From: Escherichia phage vB_EcoM_G4498 | Length of the DNA: 64,000 bases | Sequence record: NC_054918.1 | Reading direction: 5' to 3' (one strand) | Part shown: positions 1 through 64,000 of the stretch, piece by piece | Layout of the letters: each line of letters opens with the position of its first letter | Position numbering within the stretch: the stretch's first letter is position 1 | Notes under the pieces: generated by a model | Told to the model about the DNA's origin: nothing | Database searches by the model: none | The model's input: only the letters and a program-made list of their open reading frames with translations | Made by a program: the position numbers and the translations under genes

Positions 1-2178
1 TTAGGCCGCAAGGGCCTTCATAGTTTTAGCGATTTGGGAAACTTCATCATCACTCAAAGAGTTGCGATAACCGATGAAGTCGGAAACAATACGGAATTTC
101 TTGGTAAACTCAGCAACCATTTTATCACTGTTTTTTGAAGCATTATTTGATAATACATCAAAAAGATTAGTTACTGTCCAGATGTCATGACCGATGGTAT
201 CTTTTCCACCATTAAAATATACACCGCGCAATGAACTAACTATATTAGCGAGTCGTGTATATTCTTCAGAAACTTCATCTGTACTGAAGTACTTCATCAT
301 AAAATCTAGTTCAGGATACTTGATAATTTTATCAATATATCGTTGAGCTGAACTTGAATAACCTACGTACTTATCATAATCTACATCATCAAAAGCATCT
401 ACATATAAATCACGCAGAGTTTCAAAAATACATTGGCACTGACCGAGTTCTTTTACCTTTTTCTGCAAAAGCGGACGAATAACATAAAACTCATTAATGC
501 CAATAAGATTAGCCATACGAATCAAAATATTCATAGATGGATGACAAAGAGATGTAGTACCATCCATAGAGAAAATATCAGAACGATGCATATACGCTAC
601 ATACCCAGTAATTTCATCTGCTTCTGATGTGAGCGTAAATAATTCCTCTTTTTCCCAGCGCCCGTCTTTAATTTCAAACTTAAATGCTGTAGCAGCTTTA
701 GGACGAGAAGCTTTACTTTTAACTACCTTTGGAATATAGCTTTTAACTAAAGCTTCAATTTCTGACAAATAATGAATGTTAACTTCATCACTTTCAAACA
801 TCGCCATAATATCAGGAAGTAAATCAATCTGCGATTCTACTTCTGGATTAATAAACAGAAGACGCTCATTATGATGAATATTCAAAGTGTTATTAAATTC
901 ACTATCATCTAACGCTCGTGCTAATCCACGAACAATATTAACACGATTTTTAATATTATCAATAACGATATTAATTTTTGTTGTATTAATACCAAACAGA
1001 CGATAACTTGATGCAACGGCTGAAGTTTCATGACTTTGCTTAATGCGCTTCAGTCGAGGGTCAAGATTTACTTCATACACAACTCCTGCATTACATAACT
1101 TATTGTCAGGTTCAAACATGCTCTGCATCTTTTTATATGACAGATTTTTAGTCGTGAATTTGACTGAATTACTAATCATATAATCTCGAGCAGAATATCC
1201 CATCTTCATCAATTCACGATATGTGTGACGAGGAGATGTAGATTCTTTAAATCGTTTTACATCTTCATTAAATGCTTTCTCACTGAGTTCTTTAACTCGT
1301 TCAATAATATTTTTACGAGTACGATCATCTAGTGAAAGAGCTTCGCGTGATGGAGCAATATCAAGCGAACCCATTGGAAACTTAATGTAATTCACTTCAT
1401 TACGAATGCTTAGCCAGTTACGGTCTTTAATAACACCATCGATAGGATAAACAATACCGCCATAGATAGCATATAATCCACCACGATCAGGCCAGTATCT
1501 TTCTGGATTTATGCCGTAATAATCATCAAAATCCGGAAAATAATCAATTTCGCGGTCAAGACCATTAATGATAGCCAAATCTTTGAATGGTCGCATGATA
1601 TAAGAAACTTCATAAGCAAAGTTTCTAAAGTCTTTTTCTTCAACTGGAACTACGATTTCAATACCAGTTTTATCATCTGGACCCATTTCTTTTACGAATG
1701 TAGGTTTAATCTGTGGACCATCACCATCCATGTAAGCTACATAACCACGAATTTCACCTTTATGATACGAAGTAATACTAAATGTATCAGTATAACTAAA
1801 CGGAGATTTAGAACCTAAACCAAACCCGCCAATAAAGTCATTAGATTCAGCCTTAGATGAACTGAAGTATGAATTATATAACCCAGGAGAATTATCATCA
1901 CCCTGAATATCAAAATCACTCATACCCGGACCAAAATCTCGACAAACAAATCGCGGATCTAATCGTCCTGGAACTTGTATGATAAATTTTTCAGGATTTC
2001 CATTAAGTGCATGGGCATCAATCATATTAGTAATTAATTCACGGACTACTGCACGAATCTTGTTTGTATACAAATCAGATGACAGAATTTTAAATACTTT
2101 AGGAGATGCTGTGATGCTAAATGCTTTTGATTTAGAACCATTGCCAAGAATTGTTTCTTTTTCAGTGGTGATAATCAT
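1..2178 (-). CDS. rIIA: rIIA membrane-associated protein (rapid lysis / lysis-inhibition locus), complete 725 aa
   Basis: 725-aa ORF, same length as T4 rIIA and at the same genome position; stop codon is at window positions 1-3. Identified from memory of the T4 protein. Confidence 0.85.
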
Positions 2179-2448: not shown

Positions 2449-4267
2449 ACTGGCTCATCCATTCTTTACGAAGGTCAGCATTATCTCCCATGAGCATTTC
2501 AAAAAGCTCTTTCCAGTTCTCAGGAAGTTTAACAACATCATATACTGGATTTTGAATCATCTCACGATATTCAGATTTTTCCAAAGAGCCAAGTCCTTTA
2601 ATATAACGGATGCTATGTTTAGGTAGAGCATCTTTAGCACTCTCATATTCAGCGACTGTATAAAACCATTCTTGTTTTTTACCAATCTGTGCGATGATTA
2701 CAGGAGTTTTGACAAAGCGAATTCGTCCTTGCTCAAACAGTTCTGGCCAATTACTAAAAAATCCAAGCAGAGAAGGATAAATGCTTCCTAGACCATCATG
2801 GTCAGCATCAGTCATAATAGCAATATTATGATAATTCAAGTTTTCAGCTTTTTCACCGAGAACTAATCCAGTGATTGCGCAAATATCAAACAGTTCTTTG
2901 TTTTTAAGCATGTCAGCATATGACATACCCCAACTGTTGAGAACTTTACCACGTAATGGATAACCACCGTGAAGTTCTTTATCACGAACATCAATAAGAT
3001 ATCCGATAGCCGAATCACCCTCAGTCAAGAAAAGAGTAGTATCAGCATCTTTACCACAAAGATTCGCTTTAATATGTTTATGAACCTTAGCTTTAGAAGC
3101 CTTTTTAGCTGCTTTAGTTTCTGCTGCTTTTTCTGCCGCCAATTTACGAGCCAAAGCAGCTTCAATAATCGGCATTAGAATTGCTTCATTATTTAGAATA
3201 GCGCGTGAAATCTTTTTAGCATCAAGTTGAATATGACTACGAATTTCGCCAAATGGAGAAGTCAAACGCTCTTTAGTTTGAGAATCAAATCGCATGTTTT
3301 TCATATCACGAACAAACATAACGATAGTCAAACATTCTTTAACACGCGCTTTAGTTACATCAATTTTGAACTTACGTTTGATTTGTGGAATAAGGTCTTC
3401 ACAAATATCATCCATAACACAGTCAATGTGATGGCCACCATTCTTAGTGTGAATGTTATTGACGTATGTTAATTGACGAAAACCATCCGGTGAACGACCA
3501 ACCGCAATAGAACAATTTTCTTGTTCTTGAACAATAGCATGCTCATCATATTGGCGTGCATATTTCTTAAAATTGCCCTGAACCTTTTTACCATTAAAGG
3601 TAAATTGAATATCAGGATAAACAACAGCAAGTGTCTGGAGACGATCTAATGTAATGTCAAGATAAACTTGAGATAATTCATTAGTTTCAAATGACATAAA
3701 ATCTGGAATGAAAGTAACACGAGTTCCTTTCCATTTTCCAGGAATAGTTTCCCATGATTTATTTTCCATGCCATTTGAACAACGAACTACAATATTATTT
3801 TGACCATCGCCAGTTTCACCGACAAACATCACAGAAAAAATGTTAGTTAAACTAGAACCAACACCATTCATACCACCGGTGACGCGTTCTTTATCATCAC
3901 CAAAGTTACCACCTGCTTTTGGAATAGTCCACGCAGCAACTGGACCAGGAATTTCTTCACCGGTAGGTGTTTTGACCATCGCTTGTGGAATACCACGACC
4001 GTTATCTTCAACTGTTACTTGATTGTTTTTAATAGTAACATTAATTTTATTTGCGAATTTAAACTTAGTACGAATACCTTCATCTACTGAGTTATCGATA
4101 ATTTCATCAATAAGCTTAACAAGACCAGGTACATACTGAACACTTTCCCATTTACCAAACAGAAAGCGCTCATGCATTTCATTAGCGGAAGAGCCAATGT
4201 ACATGCCGCTACGCTTTTTGATATGTTCAATATCGCTCAGAATTTTAATTTCATTCTTAATCATCAC
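2447..4267 (-). CDS. 39: DNA topoisomerase II large (ATPase, GyrB-like) subunit, unsplit 606-aa form
   Basis: 606-aa ORF with GHKL ATPase region (EDNGRGIP, GGMNGVGSS) and TOPRIM-like region (LFLTEGDSA, DADHDG); single continuous frame. Confidence 0.9.
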   Translation of the reverse strand: MMIKNEIKILSDIEHIKKRSGMYIGSSANEMHERFLFGKWESVQYVPGLVKLIDEIIDNSVDEGIRTKFKFANKINVTIKNNQVTVEDNGRGIPQAMVKTPTGEEIPGPVAAWTIPKAGGNFGDDKERVTGGMNGVGSSLTNIFSVMFVGETGDGQNNIVVRCSNGMENKSWETIPGKWKGTRVTFIPDFMSFETNELSQVYLDITLDRLQTLAVVYPDIQFTFNGKKVQGNFKKYARQYDEHAIVQEQENCSIAVGRSPDGFRQLTYVNNIHTKNGGHHIDCVMDDICEDLIPQIKRKFKIDVTKARVKECLTIVMFVRDMKNMRFDSQTKERLTSPFGEIRSHIQLDAKKISRAILNNEAILMPIIEAALARKLAAEKAAETKAAKKASKAKVHKHIKANLCGKDADTTLFLTEGDSAIGYLIDVRDKELHGGYPLRGKVLNSWGMSYADMLKNKELFDICAITGLVLGEKAENLNYHNIAIMTDADHDGLGSIYPSLLGFFSNWPELFEQGRIRFVKTPVIIAQIGKKQEWFYTVAEYESAKDALPKHSIRYIKGLGSLEKSEYREMIQNPVYDVVKLPENWKELFEMLMGDNADLRKEWMSQ

Positions 4268-57677: not shown

Positions 57678-58259
57678 CTAACCGAGCTTTTTAGTTAATT
57701 CATTCCAATGTTTTCTACACAAAGAAACATAAATTTCATCACCAATACAGATTTGATTACCTTCTTTAACTGGTGTTCCATCTTCCATTAATCGAGCTGT
57801 CATAATCGCTTTTTTACCACAATGACAAACTGCCTTTAGTTCAATAAGTTTATCTGCAATCGCTAAAAGTTCTTTAGAACCTTCAAATAATTTTCCAGCG
57901 AAATCAGTCCTTAGCCCATAAGCCATAACAGGAACATTATATGTATCAACAATTCGGCTCAATTGATGCACCTGTTCAGTTTTTAAAAACTGAGCTTCAT
58001 CTACAAATACGCAATGAATATCTTTTTGTGCTTCAGCCCATTTATAGAACTCGAAAATATCCATATCATCTGTAATAATATTCGCTTCCTGCTTAATTCC
58101 AATGCGAGAAACGACTTCACAGACAGAATCGCGAGTATCAATAGCAGGCTTAAGAACTAATACACTCATTCCACGTTCTTTATAATTATGTGCAGCAGTC
58201 AAAAGAGAAGCAGATTTTCCAGCATTCATTGCTGCATAAGTAAAAATTAAACTCGCCAT
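57678..58259 (-). CDS. tk: thymidine kinase
   Basis: 193 aa; P-loop YAAMNAGKS; C-terminal zinc ribbon CHCGKK...C. Confidence 0.9.
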   Translation of the reverse strand: MASLIFTYAAMNAGKSASLLTAAHNYKERGMSVLVLKPAIDTRDSVCEVVSRIGIKQEANIITDDMDIFEFYKWAEAQKDIHCVFVDEAQFLKTEQVHQLSRIVDTYNVPVMAYGLRTDFAGKLFEGSKELLAIADKLIELKAVCHCGKKAIMTARLMEDGTPVKEGNQICIGDEIYVSLCRKHWNELTKKLG

Positions 58260-58268
58260 ATCACCTTC

Positions 58269-58454
58269 TTAAAGCGTATTCACATAAGCTATTAATTCAT
58301 TTTCTTTCTTATCAAACCGATCAGCAAATTCTTCCTGCTGTTCGGGAGATAGCGGGCCGTATTCATCATAAAAGGTGTTTGCTTCTGTATGCTCATCTAG
58401 AAGTTCATGGATAAGCTCAAACAATTTATCTTTTTGTTCTTTGCTTAGACTCAC
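58269..58454 (-). CDS. small acidic hypothetical protein
   Basis: 61-aa ORF. Confidence 0.45.
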   Translation of the reverse strand: MSLSKEQKDKLFELIHELLDEHTEANTFYDEYGPLSPEQQEEFADRFDKKENELIAYVNTL

Positions 58455-58623
58455 AGTATGTCAATCCCCAAAAGTTTTAAAATGACTCGTTTCTGATTCA
58501 TAACCGCTACGATTGAATGACCGTTAGGGTCTTTTTGACCCGATCCAATTATAAATCCTTTTTGTGCAGAAAGTTCAATCAAAACATCAAGTTCACGTAA
58601 TAATTGATATTTTAAATCATCAT

Positions 58624-58851
58624 TCATTTTGGTTTACCTTCTTTAACGAAATCAGGATAAGGATAAAATCCCGAATAAAATCCTTCACCTTTATGATTGA
58701 TGCATCCTTTATTAGAACAATAGCACCAATAATCGAAATCACAAGCCATTTCATCATTACATAAAGCAAAAACAACAGGCCATTTACACTTTTCACAATG
58801 GGCATTTTTAAGAATACTAGTTTGGCTCATAACCATGTAACCTTTAAGCAA
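58624..58851 (-). CDS. small Cys-rich hypothetical protein
   Basis: 75 aa with many Cys/His (CEKCKW...CNDEMACDFDYWCYCSNKGCINH). Confidence 0.45.
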   Translation of the reverse strand: MLKGYMVMSQTSILKNAHCEKCKWPVVFALCNDEMACDFDYWCYCSNKGCINHKGEGFYSGFYPYPDFVKEGKPK

Positions 58852-59054
58852 TATTCTTCTACGTGCTGTTTACGACCTTTCTTATCAATAAAGGTATATT
58901 CAACGAATGTTCCAATGTAGTCTTTATCTACATCATGTGGACTATTAATTGGACATTTAGTACGGCAAATGCGTTCCCATTGACGAATAATTACTGCTTT
59001 ATTCTTTGGGTCATATGGATGTGGATAATGTATATTCATAATAATGGTTCCCAA
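58827..59054 (-). CDS. small hypothetical protein
   Basis: 75-aa ORF. Confidence 0.45.
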   Translation of the reverse strand: MGTIIMNIHYPHPYDPKNKAVIIRQWERICRTKCPINSPHDVDKDYIGTFVEYTFIDKKGRKQHVEEYCLKVTWL

Positions 59055-59503
59055 TCAACAATCACAATTTCTAATTTAGAGGAATATGCATCTAAAATCC
59101 CCTCAATAATATCCCAGTTCCCTTTACCTATGCCTGCACCAATCCTAGGCATATAGATTGTAGGTTTAATCAGTTTATTTTCACCAAACTCATTTAATTC
59201 TAACATACAATTCATTAAAGCGGAATACTCAAAATTTGGCCCTGGTTGAAATTGAGTATAAAGGTTGAAGCAATACGCTTTATGAGTCCTAAAGTATTTT
59301 TCATAGACTGAGTAAGAACCGAGTTTAGTTACATCACCCCATTCAGTCTGTAATTTATCAGCTTCCAAAATTTTAGGGAAAGCTTTGGTTAATTGACCCG
59401 CTACGCCTGAACCCATAGTATGAAAACAATTACATCCATGCGCAATATTTTTACCTTCAGCGAAAAGGGCGACAATATCGCCCTTGATATATTTTACAAT
59501 CAT
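59036..59503 (-). CDS. macro-domain-like protein (candidate ADP-ribose binding / ADP-ribosylhydrolase)
   Basis: 155 aa; Gly-rich loops NIAHGCNCFHTMGSGVAGQ and PRIGAGIGKG resemble macro-domain signatures. Confidence 0.5.
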   Translation of the reverse strand: MIVKYIKGDIVALFAEGKNIAHGCNCFHTMGSGVAGQLTKAFPKILEADKLQTEWGDVTKLGSYSVYEKYFRTHKAYCFNLYTQFQPGPNFEYSALMNCMLELNEFGENKLIKPTIYMPRIGAGIGKGNWDIIEGILDAYSSKLEIVIVDWEPLL

Positions 59504-59847
59504 CTAGTACTCAATCCTCGATTATAAGAATCTACCAAACGGTCAACCATTGAATGACAAGCGGCTTTATCTTTCTCCTCCGCAACTGAGCATTCTAAGG
59601 TATTCCACTTTTTAGCATATCGTTTTAATAATGTATCGTTTTTGTATCTGCTTGATTTATCTCTTTCTCCGTCTTTATATGCATATATTAATTTCTGTGC
59701 AAATTCAGCTTGGCATGCTTTATTTTTCCCACAATAATCTGCCGCAGTGCGGTTTACATATTCTCTAATTTCAGTATATGATGTATCTGCTGATGCAGAA
59801 GCAGAAAATGAAATTAATCCTATACATAAAACCAAAATTTTAGTCAT
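59500..59847 (-). CDS. secreted hypothetical protein
   Basis: 115 aa with cleavable signal peptide MTKILVLCIGLISFSASASA and conserved Cys pairs. Confidence 0.5.
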   Translation of the reverse strand: MTKILVLCIGLISFSASASADTSYTEIREYVNRTAADYCGKNKACQAEFAQKLIYAYKDGERDKSSRYKNDTLLKRYAKKWNTLECSVAEEKDKAACHSMVDRLVDSYNRGLSTR

Positions 59848-60385
59848 TTACTATTTCCAAAAGTTTATTATTTTTAAGGTAATTAGCCTTTTCTAGGACT
59901 TCAGAAGCATATTTAGAACCTGCTTTAACATTCCATCCCGAATTATAAGAGGATATTGCTTTTCTTATATCGCCCTTATGTATATTTAACCAATAAGAAA
60001 GTTCAATGTACGCCCAGGAAGCTGAATTGGATCGTTTATTCAACATTCTTTTTATTTCAGCATCAGTCATATTATAACCAAGTTCCTTAACTCTCGCTCG
60101 CATAGTAGGCAAATAATTTTGGAACATTCCGTAGGCGTGATGCTTTGGTTTAGATTTTAAATTAACTCCGCCAGAGCTTTCTTGCCATAAAATGGCTGCC
60201 ATTATATGACCTAATCCGCTCTTGTGGATATTTTTGTGTGTTTTATATTTTCCATCCTTAGAAAATTGTTCCCCGAATTGATACGCGTAACGCATGTTAT
60301 CGAGTTGGACATTACTGAAAGTATGCTCGGAGCTATGTGCCATCATTGAAATGGCCAATAGACCAGCGAGTAGTGCTTTTCTCAT
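59840..60385 (-). CDS. secreted lytic-transglycosylase-like (SLT domain) protein
   Basis: 181 aa; signal peptide; ILWQESSGG resembles the SLT catalytic E-S motif. Confidence 0.55.
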   Translation of the reverse strand: MRKALLAGLLAISMMAHSSEHTFSNVQLDNMRYAYQFGEQFSKDGKYKTHKNIHKSGLGHIMAAILWQESSGGVNLKSKPKHHAYGMFQNYLPTMRARVKELGYNMTDAEIKRMLNKRSNSASWAYIELSYWLNIHKGDIRKAISSYNSGWNVKAGSKYASEVLEKANYLKNNKLLEIVND

Positions 60386-60392
60386 GCTTACC

Positions 60393-60854
60393 TCATTGAG
60401 TTTTAATTACTGCTTTAGAAGCCTTTCCTGGTAAACGACGACTGTTAATAATTGCCATCCTACATTGAAGCGACGGGTCTTTGAACTTCTCATTAGGTTT
60501 ACAAACTGTAAATCCGAGCCAAAGATTTCCATCTGTGATTTCTAAACGTCCAGGACGATATTCAACCCCATCAATAAAATCCTCGTCAATGTCAGGACGC
60601 GGAGGCATACTTAGGAATTCATTAACTTCTAAAACATGGTCTTTTATTTTATGGAATAATTCAAAAACGTATGTCTCATCAATCTCCCGTTGAATTGCGC
60701 GATCAAGAAGATGCTGAGAATATTTTAGATGAAACGATGAGACTCCTGCTGCTTTTGATGCCTCACGAATCTCATTGTTAATTTGACGAAACTCCGACTC
60801 AAAGTGACGACGAAGCTTATTTCGACGGATAAAAACTTCTGTATTGATAGTCAT
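60393..60854 (-). CDS. regB: RegB sequence-specific endoribonuclease
   Basis: 153 aa (T4 RegB length); SD GAGGAG; early promoter upstream. Confidence 0.8.
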   Translation of the reverse strand: MTINTEVFIRRNKLRRHFESEFRQINNEIREASKAAGVSSFHLKYSQHLLDRAIQREIDETYVFELFHKIKDHVLEVNEFLSMPPRPDIDEDFIDGVEYRPGRLEITDGNLWLGFTVCKPNEKFKDPSLQCRMAIINSRRLPGKASKAVIKTQ

Positions 60855-60879
60855 GTTGTTCTCCTCTTAACTGATAGAA

Positions 60880-60913
60880 AAATTATACCACAGTCAAGAG
60901 GAAAAGTAAACAG
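60880..60913 (-). promoter_or_regulatory. early promoter for regB
   Basis: Minus strand GTTTAC-N17-TGGTATAAT. Confidence 0.7.
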
Positions 60914-61234
60914 TTATTCTTTAAATCTAATCAATTTATTCATAGACTTTGAAACTTCTGCACGAACCTCATGTAGATTTTTGAGCTGTTCAAGACGCTG
61001 CGTATAGTAAGCAATTTCATCTTCTTCGAGACAGTCCTGTGAATCTTCTTTAAGATAACGTGCATAGTCCTGAAAAGCGTTACGAACTACTTCCTGGAAA
61101 TCATCAAGACTTTGAATTTTCTTAGGAGCAGCAGATACACGACGAGGGGCAGTATAATACTCATAACCAAACCCTGCGCTTAATTGAGCCATTAGTATTT
61201 TTCCTCTGGTTGGAACACTGCACGACAAGCCCAC
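60914..61234 (-). CDS. hypothetical protein
   Basis: 106-aa ORF. Confidence 0.45.
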
Positions 61235-61494
61235 ATACTGGCTTCTTTGAGTTTCGTTTTAGCAATAGTTAACTGATCGAGGCTTTCAGCATAATTCTTC
61301 GCGAATTCACAGTCTTCACAATTATCTAGTGCTTCCCAGAATTCATCGTATAAAGCGTCAAAGATAAGTCCTAAACGAACTTCAGCGTCTTTGATTGCAT
61401 TCACTTTACCGATTTTCTCTTCAGTATGTGGCTTATAACCCTTAATATCTTCAATCATATTTGACTTCCTCACCAGTACATAAATCATATTCAA
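61192..61494 (-). CDS. small hypothetical protein (vs.4 position; candidate Acb2-like nucleotide sponge)
   Basis: 100-aa ORF two genes upstream of the GrcA-like gene; assignment by synteny only. Confidence 0.35.
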
Positions 61495-61672
61495 CTAAAC
61501 GAATGGGTTCATGAATGCCATATCCCTGAACAGAAATTTCTGTCGTAGGATAAATTCCATCAATATCACCCATATTCCACGCTTCATTAAATTGCTGTTC
61601 GCCTGAATTACTAAACCACTCGGCGAAAGCATTTAGCACATCTTCAGAACCTTCAATAATTATCTTTGCCAT
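61451..61672 (-). CDS. small hypothetical protein
   Basis: 73-aa ORF. Confidence 0.45.
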   Translation of the reverse strand: MAKIIIEGSEDVLNAFAEWFSNSGEQQFNEAWNMGDIDGIYPTTEISVQGYGIHEPIRLVEYDLCTGEEVKYD

Positions 61673-62034
61673 TACAAACTCTCGGTAAAGGTACGAGCGA
61701 TAACGTCGCGCTGCTGTTCCGGAGTCAGAGAGTTAAAGCGAACTGCATAACCGGATACACGGATGGTCAGCTGCGGATATTTTTCCGGATGCTTAACTGC
61801 ATCTTCCAGAGTTTCACGACGCAGAACGTTAACGTTCAGGTGTTGACCACCTTCAATTTTAACTGTAGGCTGTGGCTCAATTTCAATTTCACGGGCATGC
61901 AAACCATAGAAAATTTCTGGGTCTACAAAAGAGTCCTCTTTAAAGGTTTTAGAAACGATAATTCGTGCTTGAATACCATCTTCAAAATAAATAGTACCTT
62001 TATGTGTTCCTTCAAGAATTTGATATGCTTTCAT
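61672..62034 (-). CDS. autonomous glycyl-radical cofactor (YfiD/GrcA-like)
   Basis: 120 aa; C-terminal [25 protein letters not shown] glycyl-radical motif. Confidence 0.75.
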
Positions 62035-62041
62035 ATAAACC

Positions 62042-62419
62042 TCAATTAGAAAATAAATTTATCCAGGATTGTTCTTTAATTAAAAATGGCTCAGAATCAT
62101 ATGCCATTAAACTTTGGGTAATTAACCCTTTAAAAGGTCCATCAATAAATTCCATGGTAAAATATGGAATTTTATTCATTAGCCGTGCATTAGGAGCAGT
62201 ACATAAAACTCTGCATCCTTTGAATACACCTTTTTGTAATTTGTATTGCTTGGGATAAAATTCGCTCAAAATGTTATTATTTGCTAAAATTTCAAAATGA
62301 TTCACCAATTTATTTTTAATAGTTTTTGGCGAAAAATAAAGATATTCGAAAAGCTGAGTGTCTGTCATCATTGCATTCCGATTATGAAAAACTGTGGACG
62401 AGTAATACCACCAATGCAA
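62042..62419 (-). CDS. hypothetical protein
   Basis: 125-aa ORF. Confidence 0.45.
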
Positions 62420-62955
62420 CAGTTAATATTACAGCAGTGGTGTACAGTGTCAATATGGACACTATAAATCTTATCCATATCAGGAGATTTGACAGGCTCA
62501 TCAATTATATATAAAATTCGCGAAAGCGATAAACCTCTGAACTTGCTTCCTTTATTACCAATAAAACTGCGCACAGAATCAGTAAATAAACGAAAACGTA
62601 TATCATCATTAGAATAACGCGAAAATTCCTTTTTAATGTTATTTGCAGAAATTTTAGCGTAAGCTGAAGTATTAGAAAGAACAATAACTGTTCCGCCATC
62701 ATATAACCAATTAGCAGCAAAATTAGTCACAGCAATTGATTTACCGGATTGACGTCCACCATCTATACGAAGTGTGCAATACTGTTTAAGTAAGTCTTCA
62801 AATGGTGGGATATAATCGTTTTTACAAATTTCTTCTACTCTAGCATCAGAATGGTGTGTAAAAGCATTCATCAGGGATAGATAAGGACCAGTTAAAAATG
62901 TTCTCATTTTATTCTCTCTAGGTTTGGGCCATTCCGTGGCGCATGAATTGTCCAT
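62368..62955 (-). CDS. P-loop NTPase-like hypothetical protein (start uncertain)
   Basis: Walker-A-like GGRQSGKS and Walker-B-like LYIIDE; real start may be MRTFLTG... Confidence 0.45.
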   Translation of the reverse strand: MDNSCATEWPKPRENKMRTFLTGPYLSLMNAFTHHSDARVEEICKNDYIPPFEDLLKQYCTLRIDGGRQSGKSIAVTNFAANWLYDGGTVIVLSNTSAYAKISANNIKKEFSRYSNDDIRFRLFTDSVRSFIGNKGSKFRGLSLSRILYIIDEPVKSPDMDKIYSVHIDTVHHCCNINCCIGGITRPQFFIIGMQ

Positions 62956-62975
62956 TTCTGTATTTACCCATTACC
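62941..62975. repeat. 35-nt repeat, copy A (ip-locus flank)
   Basis: gcatgaattgtccatttctgtatttacccattacc; 33/35 identical to copy B at 63577-63611. Confidence 0.7.
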
Positions 62976-63048
62976 GCACTTGGGCTCGACCTTATTACAT
63001 GTTGGCGGGAATCCCTCACAAAATCATGAGGTCCAGGTTGTTCCCATG

Positions 63049-63522
63049 TTATTTGAACGATTTAACGTACTGAATAGAACCTTTACTATTCACAAAGGCA
63101 ATTTTACCATTTTTGTTATACATAGTAGCAGTACGTTGATAACCGTAAGTTTGTTTACCAGATTGATAACCAACTAATGCGAAATTATCTTCACCCATTT
63201 TATTCTGTTTAGCGCGAATGCGTTCATGACCATGTGCCATAAGAACCTTAGCATCACCAGTTGCAATGGATCGACGAGTTTTTTCATCTTCAGCTGTATT
63301 AACAAAGTCGTCAAATGAATCAAATTTAGCATGAGATTTATTATACAGTTTTCCATCTACTGCATAATTATATCCTTGTACATCCATCTCAACTTCTGTA
63401 CCATCATCTAATACAGCAGTAATTTTCTGTCCTTTTTTAAATTTCAAAAGATCAGTAAAAGATTCAGCAATAATTTGAGAATTAATAGCTGCCTCAGTAA
63501 TAAATTCTTGATATGTTTTCAT
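63049..63522 (-). CDS. internal protein (IPII/IPIII-like) with capsid targeting sequence
   Basis: 157 aa starting MKTYQEFITEAA, resembling the T4 internal-protein CTS. Confidence 0.7.
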   Translation of the reverse strand: MKTYQEFITEAAINSQIIAESFTDLLKFKKGQKITAVLDDGTEVEMDVQGYNYAVDGKLYNKSHAKFDSFDDFVNTAEDEKTRRSIATGDAKVLMAHGHERIRAKQNKMGEDNFALVGYQSGKQTYGYQRTATMYNKNGKIAFVNSKGSIQYVKSFK

Positions 63523-63563
63523 GTATATCCTTTAAATGTAAATAGTTTTATTCTTTAAGTTTT

Positions 63564-63589
63564 GGACAATTCACACGCATGAATTGTCC
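63564..63589 (-). terminator. perfect 10-bp hairpin GGACAATTCA-cacgca-TGAATTGTCC
   Basis: Inverted repeat between the upstream CDS and the ip gene; overlaps repeat copy B. Confidence 0.5.
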
Positions 63590-63611
63590 GTTTCTATATT
63601 TACCCATTACC
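63577..63611. repeat. 35-nt repeat, copy B (ip-locus flank)
   Basis: gcatgaattgtccgtttctatatttacccattacc. Confidence 0.7.
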
Positions 63612-63630
63612 AGGTTCGAACTCGGCTTTA

Positions 63631-64000
63631 TTAAGAATTACCGCGGGCTGCATTAGCAACGGCGTAAGCGTACTGAACATTAGCGTCTTTAAACGTACCT
63701 TTAGAGGTATCTATTTCTGCCCTAAAGCCGCCTTTAGTCATAACATCGGCAAATTCTTTACGGAAAGCCATTGCATCAAGACTTCTCCATGATGATTTGT
63801 GCTTGGCAAATTCAAGACCTGCGAAGTTGACAGCTTTAGCCAATTTATTATCAATGACCCATTTACCGGCTTTAGGCACAAACTTCGGGCCTTTTTGTTT
63901 AGAGAACAGTTTTAAATTCCAGCGACGAAGGTCACTGTCGGCTTTAACAAAAGCTGCGTCTAAGTTACTAGCAACAACATCTTCAATATGAGCAAATTTA
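63631..64000 (-). CDS. hypothetical protein, 3' part only (CDS continues past window end)
   Basis: Minus-strand frame stays open from 64000 down to the stop at 63631; C-terminus ...KGGFRAEIDTSKGTFKDANVQYAYAVANAARGNS. Confidence 0.5.
   Translation of the reverse strand, partial: KFAHIEDVVASNLDAAFVKADSDLRRWNLKLFSKQKGPKFVPKAGKWVIDNKLAKAVNFAGLEFAKHKSSWRSLDAMAFRKEFADVMTKGGFRAEIDTSKGTFKDANVQYAYAVANAARGNS

Follow-up and report, generated by a model that had tools for sequence, protein, structure and literature searches.

The stretch of DNA analysed here (the window) comprises 64,000 nucleotides (nt) of Escherichia phage vB_EcoM_G4498, and contains a tightly packed run of genes on its minus strand in the order vs.8-vs.7-vs.6-vs.5-vs.4-vs.3-regB (Table 1). 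The vs.4 gene, hereafter acb2, is 267 nt long including its stop codon, and encodes an acidic 10.2-kDa protein of 88 amino acids (aa). Between regB and vs.6, acb2 is flanked by vs.3 on the regB side and by vs.5 on the vs.6 side; such head-to-tail packing of acb2 with its neighbours is typical of T4 early-gene clusters. At its upstream end, the ATG at 61458 is located in an overlap, ATGATTGA, with the TGA stop codon of vs.5 (61453..61451). This arrangement of the vs.5 stop and the acb2 start is typical of translational coupling, and the two genes are probably coupled. At its downstream end, the TAA stop codon of acb2 (61194..61192) overlaps the ATG of vs.3 (61192..61190) as TAATG, the sequence of this junction being AAATACTAATGGCT.

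Table 1. Positions of acb2 (vs.4), its start signals, its neighbours and other elements in the window.
Feature	Position	Strand	Description
tk.4	59036..59503	minus	99-100% identical to T4; Macro domain, 27.7 bits
vs.1	59840..60385	minus	99-100% identical to T4; SLT lytic transglycosylase domain, 25.1 bits
regB	60393..60854	minus	Pfam REGB_T4, 230.8 bits; 100% to T4T (tblastn)
vs.3	60914..61192	minus	Downstream of acb2; 98.9% to T4T Vs.3 over 92 aa (tblastn)
acb2 (vs.4) CDS	61192..61458	minus	88 codons plus TAA stop; cyclic-dinucleotide sponge Acb2
vs.5	61451..61672	minus	Upstream of acb2; 100% to T4T Vs.5 (tblastn)
12-codon TTG extension	61459..61494	minus	3' end of vs.5 in another frame; outside acb2
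GAGG, Shine-Dalgarno-like	61468..61471	minus	Within the 3' end of vs.5; 9-nt spacer to the acb2 ATG
vs.6, GrcA-like	61672..62034	minus	Pfam Gly_radical, 66.8 bits; 100% to T4T (tblastn)
vs.7		minus	99.1% to T4T (tblastn)
vs.8 region	62368..63019	minus	216-aa Vs.8 of T4 split over two frames (tblastn)
Direct repeat, first copy	62940-62997		58 nt; 81% identity between copies; just upstream of vs.8
DUF7412 gene	63049..63522	minus	157-aa internal virion protein; DUF7412, 316.8 bits; phrog_3155
Hairpin	63563-63590		The upstream repeat copy runs into it
Direct repeat, second copy	63576-63633		Just after the ipIII stop
ipIII	63634..64000	minus	93% to T4 IpIII residues 72-193; runs off the window end

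The open reading frame (ORF) listing of the window contains a longer version of the gene, a minus-strand ORF of 100 aa (61192..61494) that starts with TTG, and it was in this form that the original prediction placed a gene at the vs.4 position. The position and the ORF proved to be real, but the length did not: the gene model of acb2 is that of 88 aa starting at ATG 61458, which is useful for annotating the genome, and the 100-aa model was dropped. Firstly, the TTG at 61494 comes directly after an in-frame TAG, and no purine-rich ribosome-binding site precedes it, while a GAGG is located at ideal spacing from the internal ATG; read directly, the sequence ahead of this ATG is ...CTGGTGAGGAAGTCAAAT ATG, and a ribosome_binding_site is annotated with the homologous T4 ORF in record X04567. 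Secondly, the start M(x)IEDIKGY is common to 38 of 38 aligned homologues, and the 12-codon extension is absent from every homologue compared. Thirdly, vs.4 starts at the internal ATG in the T4T annotation, and the annotations of T4 and T2 as well as the crystallised protein all begin with MIEDIKG. The suspicion, already voiced in the original prediction, that the true start may be an internal methionine was thus well founded.

It might be argued that the true product is nevertheless a 100-aa isoform of Acb2, extended at its N-terminus and translated from TTG 61494 or from the ATG two codons further on, because the frame is open from 61494 and TTG can be used as a bacterial start codon. The extended ORF would overlap vs.5 by 44 nt. 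Besides the start signals and homologues described above, the position of Y8 at the N-terminal edge of the ligand pocket (PMC10097602) speaks against this, since the addition of 12 residues there would presumably not be neutral. Taken together, we consider such a product to be highly improbable. We attach just as little probability to the weaker version, in which occasional translation from TTG 61494 or ATG 61488 would generate a longer isoform and, speculatively, alter the Y8 pocket. If true, it could for example allow the phage to moderate its sponge in the face of defences that sense it, such as Panoptes, but the sequence lends it no support, given that a ribosome-binding site is lacking and that homologues do not share the extension. 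We therefore keep to the 88-aa model. A 106-aa version of vs.3 starting with GTG was also rejected, being a mechanical extension. On the plus strand, no ORF of 30 aa or more is listed that overlaps positions 61192..61458, and in the region 58000..64000 all Rfam families stay below their gathering scores.

The acb2 product is identical to a protein of known structure. It matches chain A of PDB entry 7UQ2, the cGAMP-bound "Vs.4" of phage T4 (6 chains in the entry), at 88 of 88 positions (E 1.9e-57), and it is the exact sequence of the UniProt/UniRef entry ACB2_BPT4, "Anti-CBASS protein 2", which an exact-sequence look-up located on 615 contigs. In addition, it matches the Pfam family PF24729 (Acb2_Tad1_hairpin) over profile positions 1-58 of 58 with 71.4 bits (E 7.1e-20), the curated cut-off of this family being 27 bits, and it matches phrog_717 (E 2.3e-32); PHROG 717 has been named as the Vs.4 family by Jenson et al. 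in 2023 (PMC10097602). The equation of T4 vs.4 with Acb2, on which the original prediction had relied, is borne out by these matches, and the alignment with T4 Vs.4/Acb2 that it proposed as a check could not have been closer. At the DNA level, the vs.4 gene of T4T (record HM137666, locus 3393..3659) corresponds exactly to positions 61192..61458 of the window, with a tblastn match of 100% identity at 61458..61195, and in phage 215Ecol030PP the equivalent ORF is labelled 'anti-CBASS protein 2'. Thus, the two findings that would have told against the original prediction, namely a lack of similarity to Acb2 proteins and the mapping of T4 vs.4 to another ORF, were both looked for, and the opposite was obtained in each case.

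The gene neighbourhood leads to the same assignment. The original prediction arrived at the vs.4 position by counting ORFs between regB and a GrcA-like gene that it took to be vs.6. The Gly_radical match of the latter gene and its full identity to T4T vs.6 confirm that it is vs.6, and with regB and vs.6 as markers, together with the tblastn identities of the genes in between, the counting is seen to be correct. About 2.2 kb around acb2 is 98% identical to the genomes of T4, T2 and many other members of the genus Tequatrovirus. No sequence evidence against the acb2 (vs.4) reading was found, and positions 61192..61458 are almost certainly occupied by acb2 (vs.4) from a T4-like member of the genus Tequatrovirus, its translation probably being coupled to that of vs.5. 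Our scan of positions 59800..64000 for sigma-70-like promoters returned 15 sites, compared with 15.7 in shuffled sequence, i.e., no excess. In the same region, four terminator-like sites were identified (2.3 expected), none of which is placed such that it would isolate the minus-strand acb2. Because the promoter sites are no more common than in shuffled sequence, the transcript of acb2 is deduced from the organisation of the T4 genes, and we infer that acb2 is expressed and active in Escherichia phage vB_EcoM_G4498.

Comparison with T4T showed that acb2 differs from vs.4 at 8 of 267 nt (3% divergence), and that all eight differences are synonymous. With about 19% of sites being synonymous, the chance of obtaining eight synonymous changes out of eight is about 1.5e-6, which argues that acb2 is not a chance ORF. 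Divergence of this kind, confined to synonymous changes, is what continuing purifying selection leaves behind, and acb2 is under such selection. The protein is also widespread: tblastn detected it in 1,234 phage records, mostly of phages of Escherichia, Klebsiella, Shigella and Enterobacter, at identities from 100% down to about 30%, and 149 clusters were returned for it from a large protein database. Conservation was evaluated in an alignment of 39 family members reaching down to 55% identity. Residues Y8, H11, K23, A66, S74, A77, R79 and F82 are invariant in this alignment, T12, L29 and A73 are conserved in at least 90% of its members, and the variable stretch is located in the middle of the protein, at about residues 34-65.

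The phage T2 gene at the same locus (NC_054931; DNA 97.9% identical over 2.2 kb) has had another fate. Codons 7/8 of T2 vs.4 have lost 2 bp (GGTTAT -> GG--AT), so that the frame that starts at the ATG ends after the seven residues MIEDIKG, and the annotated T2 ORF of 86 aa (locus 1093..1376) corresponds to a restart at a TTG in another frame, which does not include Y8, whereas the copy in the window is intact. The deletion and the loss of Y8 agree with a remark in the Panoptes paper that the acb2 of T2 is probably defective in cyclic-dinucleotide binding (PMC12657218). We also observed that vs.5 of T2 is annotated shorter (138 nt) than that of T4. The fact that relatives lose acb2, and that selection against acb2 has been argued for in the Panoptes paper (PMC12657218), raises the question of whether acb2 of vB_EcoM_G4498 could be a silent or decaying copy too, contributing nothing to infection. 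However, its reading frame, its ribosome-binding site and both of its coupled gene junctions are intact, and the protein has remained that of T4 despite a nucleotide divergence of 3%, all of it synonymous. It is therefore hardly to be expected that the gene is silent, and below we treat it as a functional acb2.

A large body of experimental work is available for the T4 protein. The vs.4 gene of T4 was found in a genetic screen as a counter to type II CBASS that signals through cGAMP (PMC10097602; commentary PMC10449767), and T4 vs.4 mutants gain sensitivity to CBASS (PMC10097602). Analytical ultracentrifugation, isothermal titration calorimetry (ITC) and loss-of-function mutants provided evidence that Vs.4 forms a hexamer with three cGAMP molecules, its Kd for 3'3'-cGAMP being about 30 nM (PMC10097602); a Kd of about 84 nM was reported for T4 Acb2 by Cao et al. 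(PMC10312549). In the structure, base stacking is provided by Y8 and F82, and the polar contacts by Y8, H11, K23 and R79, while mutagenesis showed that L29, A66, A73 and A77 are required for hexamer formation (PMC10097602). Moreover, recombinant Vs.4 blocks the activation of the CapV phospholipase by cGAMP (PMC10097602). Finally, T4 acb2 has been shown to be necessary and sufficient to trigger the Panoptes system OptSE by sequestering its decoy, 2',3'-c-di-AMP, and the mutants Y8A and F82C lose this ability (PMC12657218).

Residues Y8, K23, D61, T68 and F82 of the acb2 product were confirmed by position, and H11, T12, L29, A66, A73, S74, A77 and R79 are present through the identity with 7UQ2. 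The product thus possesses the full set of cyclic-dinucleotide pocket residues (Y8, H11, K23, R79 and F82) as well as the full set of hexamer-interface residues (L29, A66, A73 and A77). Because its sequence is identical to that of T4 Acb2, the published binding and assembly properties carry over to it. What is said here about the hexamer, the affinities, the ligand spectrum, the antagonism of CBASS and the triggering of Panoptes rests on published experiments with T4 Acb2.

A more distant relative, the founding Acb2 protein from Pseudomonas phage PaMx33 (p26; PDB 8H2J, 8IXZ and others; Huiting et al. 2023; Cao et al., PMC10312549), permits the ligand specificity to be narrowed down. This protein belongs to the same Pfam family, PF24729, and is about 24-26% identical to the acb2 product. 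In the alignment of the two, which covers residues 4-85, its residues Y11 and K26 correspond to Y8 and K23. In our PDB searches, PaMx33 Acb2 was found weakly with the single sequence (E 0.026), and with E 6.5e-5 when we used a profile of the T4-like clade that was built without the PaMx33 sequence. Like T4 Acb2, PaMx33 Acb2 forms a hexamer with three cyclic dinucleotides (PMC10312549). PaMx33 Acb2 has a second pocket, involving R67 and T74, through which it binds cA3 with nanomolar affinity, but T4 Acb2 does not bind cA3 (PMC10312549). The range of cyclic dinucleotides bound by T4 Acb2 is the same as that of PaMx33 Acb2, and neither cA3 nor cAAG is bound by the T4 protein (PMC10312549). The substitution D61R does not restore cA3 binding to T4 Acb2, the helix lining the pocket not being kinked (PMC10312549). 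Proteins of the PaMx33/JBD67 type, which bind cyclic trinucleotides too, constitute the broad-spectrum Acb2 subgroup.

A trinucleotide pocket of the R67/T74 type is not found in the acb2 product, in which position 61 is occupied by D rather than R, and position 68, the counterpart of PaMx33 T74, by T. Since D61 is present as in T4 Acb2, where PaMx33 has R67, the acb2 product should, judging from its sequence, bind cyclic dinucleotides and not cyclic trinucleotides, and D61 and T68 together with the published T4 data place it in the dinucleotide-only subgroup. The candidate cyclic-nucleotide sponge of the original prediction can accordingly be specified further, as a sponge for cyclic dinucleotides only, a specificity published for T4 Acb2, which has the same sequence (PMC10312549). 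The gene is an already known and fully characterised one, and it is a T4-type, dinucleotide-only Acb2.

Based on these data, the following sequence of events would be expected during infection. The Acb2 protomers would assemble into an interlocked hexamer. Each of its three pockets, built from a pair of protomers, would accommodate one cyclic dinucleotide, the bases of which would be stacked upon by Y8 and F82, while Y8, H11, K23 and R79 would provide hydrogen bonds and salt bridges. In this way 3'3'-cGAMP would be held at about 30-85 nM without being degraded, and the signal produced by the host CD-NTase/cGAS would be kept from the CBASS effector, for instance the phospholipase CapV. With the effector not being activated, abortive infection would not take place and the phage could replicate. 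By virtue of this activity the phage should also become sensitive to Panoptes (OptSE), a system that fires once 2',3'-c-di-AMP, its decoy, has been sequestered.

The protein might also be an Acb2 by sequence whose main value for the phage lies in other signals, such as cUA, cUG, c-di-AMP, 2'3'-cGAMP or even the Thoeris signal 3'cADPR. T4 Acb2 has a broad cyclic-dinucleotide spectrum like that of PaMx33 Acb2 (PMC10312549) and binds 2',3'-c-di-AMP (PMC12657218), which fits this possibility. It has also been reported that some distant Acb2 homologues bind 3'cADPR, and that ten divergent ones inhibit type I Thoeris (PMC12393519). However, the one of these homologues with a solved structure, Acb2_43, has extra N- and C-terminal beta-strands, relies on other contact residues and fails to inhibit CBASS (PMC12393519), an architecture that differs from that of the acb2 product with its canonical Y8/K23/F82 pocket. 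Furthermore, the anti-CBASS activity of the identical protein has been demonstrated genetically in T4 (PMC10097602). We therefore regard a main role in handling other signals as unlikely, and favour the antagonism of CBASS through the sequestration of cyclic dinucleotides.

Two other anti-defence proteins deserve mention. Tad1 (Thoeris anti-defence 1) is a signal sponge as well, and has in common with Acb2 the hairpin domain after which PF24729 is named. This shared domain name made us consider Tad1 as an identity for the product; this was rejected because no Tad1 chains were present among the PDB matches (E up to 1), either with the single sequence or with the profile, which leaves the name of the Pfam hairpin domain as the sole link between the two. 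The other protein is Acb1, whose gene (acb1, T4 gene 57B) is presumably located beyond the end of the window, judging from the T4 map. Acb1 is a phosphodiesterase and the other anti-CBASS protein of T4 (PMC12657218; PMC10312549); it degrades the signals, whereas Acb2 sequesters them.

Compared with T4 Vs.4/Acb2, the gene described here encodes the same protein at 88 of 88 positions, has the same length, start context and neighbours (regB, vs.3, vs.5 and vs.6), and differs only by the eight synonymous nucleotide changes. The T4 protein already has a crystal structure, affinities, a ligand spectrum and in-vivo phenotypes, and an allele that encodes this identical, well-studied protein is nothing new for biology at large. 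What it does provide is a predicted phenotype for the phage: vB_EcoM_G4498 would evade CBASS systems that signal through cyclic dinucleotides, would not evade cA3 or cAAG systems through Acb2 alone, and would be restricted by hosts with Panoptes (OptSE). The disrupted acb2 of T2, a close relative, should be borne in mind when T-even phages are matched to hosts whose defence repertoires are known.

Judged by its overall sequence, the window is that of a Tequatrovirus which is close to T4 but is not T4 itself. The best match of 25 kb is with phage vb_EcoM_bov9_1 (97.4% identity, with 98% of the query covered). The departure from T4 lies upstream of vs.8, and tblastn gave no match to T4 denV anywhere in the 64,000-nt window. 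The place of T4 ipII is taken by the DUF7412 gene, which is bracketed by the two copies of a direct repeat. The DUF7412 gene and its repeats (62940-63633) look like a cassette that is exchanged by recombination between repeated intergenic elements. An 82-aa ORF that starts with GTG (63631..63879) was discarded as a gene in its own right, being just the C-terminal part of ipIII.

In the vs.8 region, residues 1-36 of T4 Vs.8 are found at 63019..62912 and residues 35-216 at 62916..62371. Both PHROG 1488 and phage 215Ecol030PP start vs.8 at MRTFLTG (ATG 62907; 179 aa), and the frame change is therefore probably located upstream of the true start of vs.8; the long N-terminus of T4 Vs.8 may be an over-extension. 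On the other side of regB, the vs.1 product has a hydrophobic N-terminus resembling a putative signal peptide. The Macro domain of tk.4 is of a type that binds or hydrolyses ADP-ribose, and a phage macro-domain protein could bear on ADP-ribose-based defence signalling.
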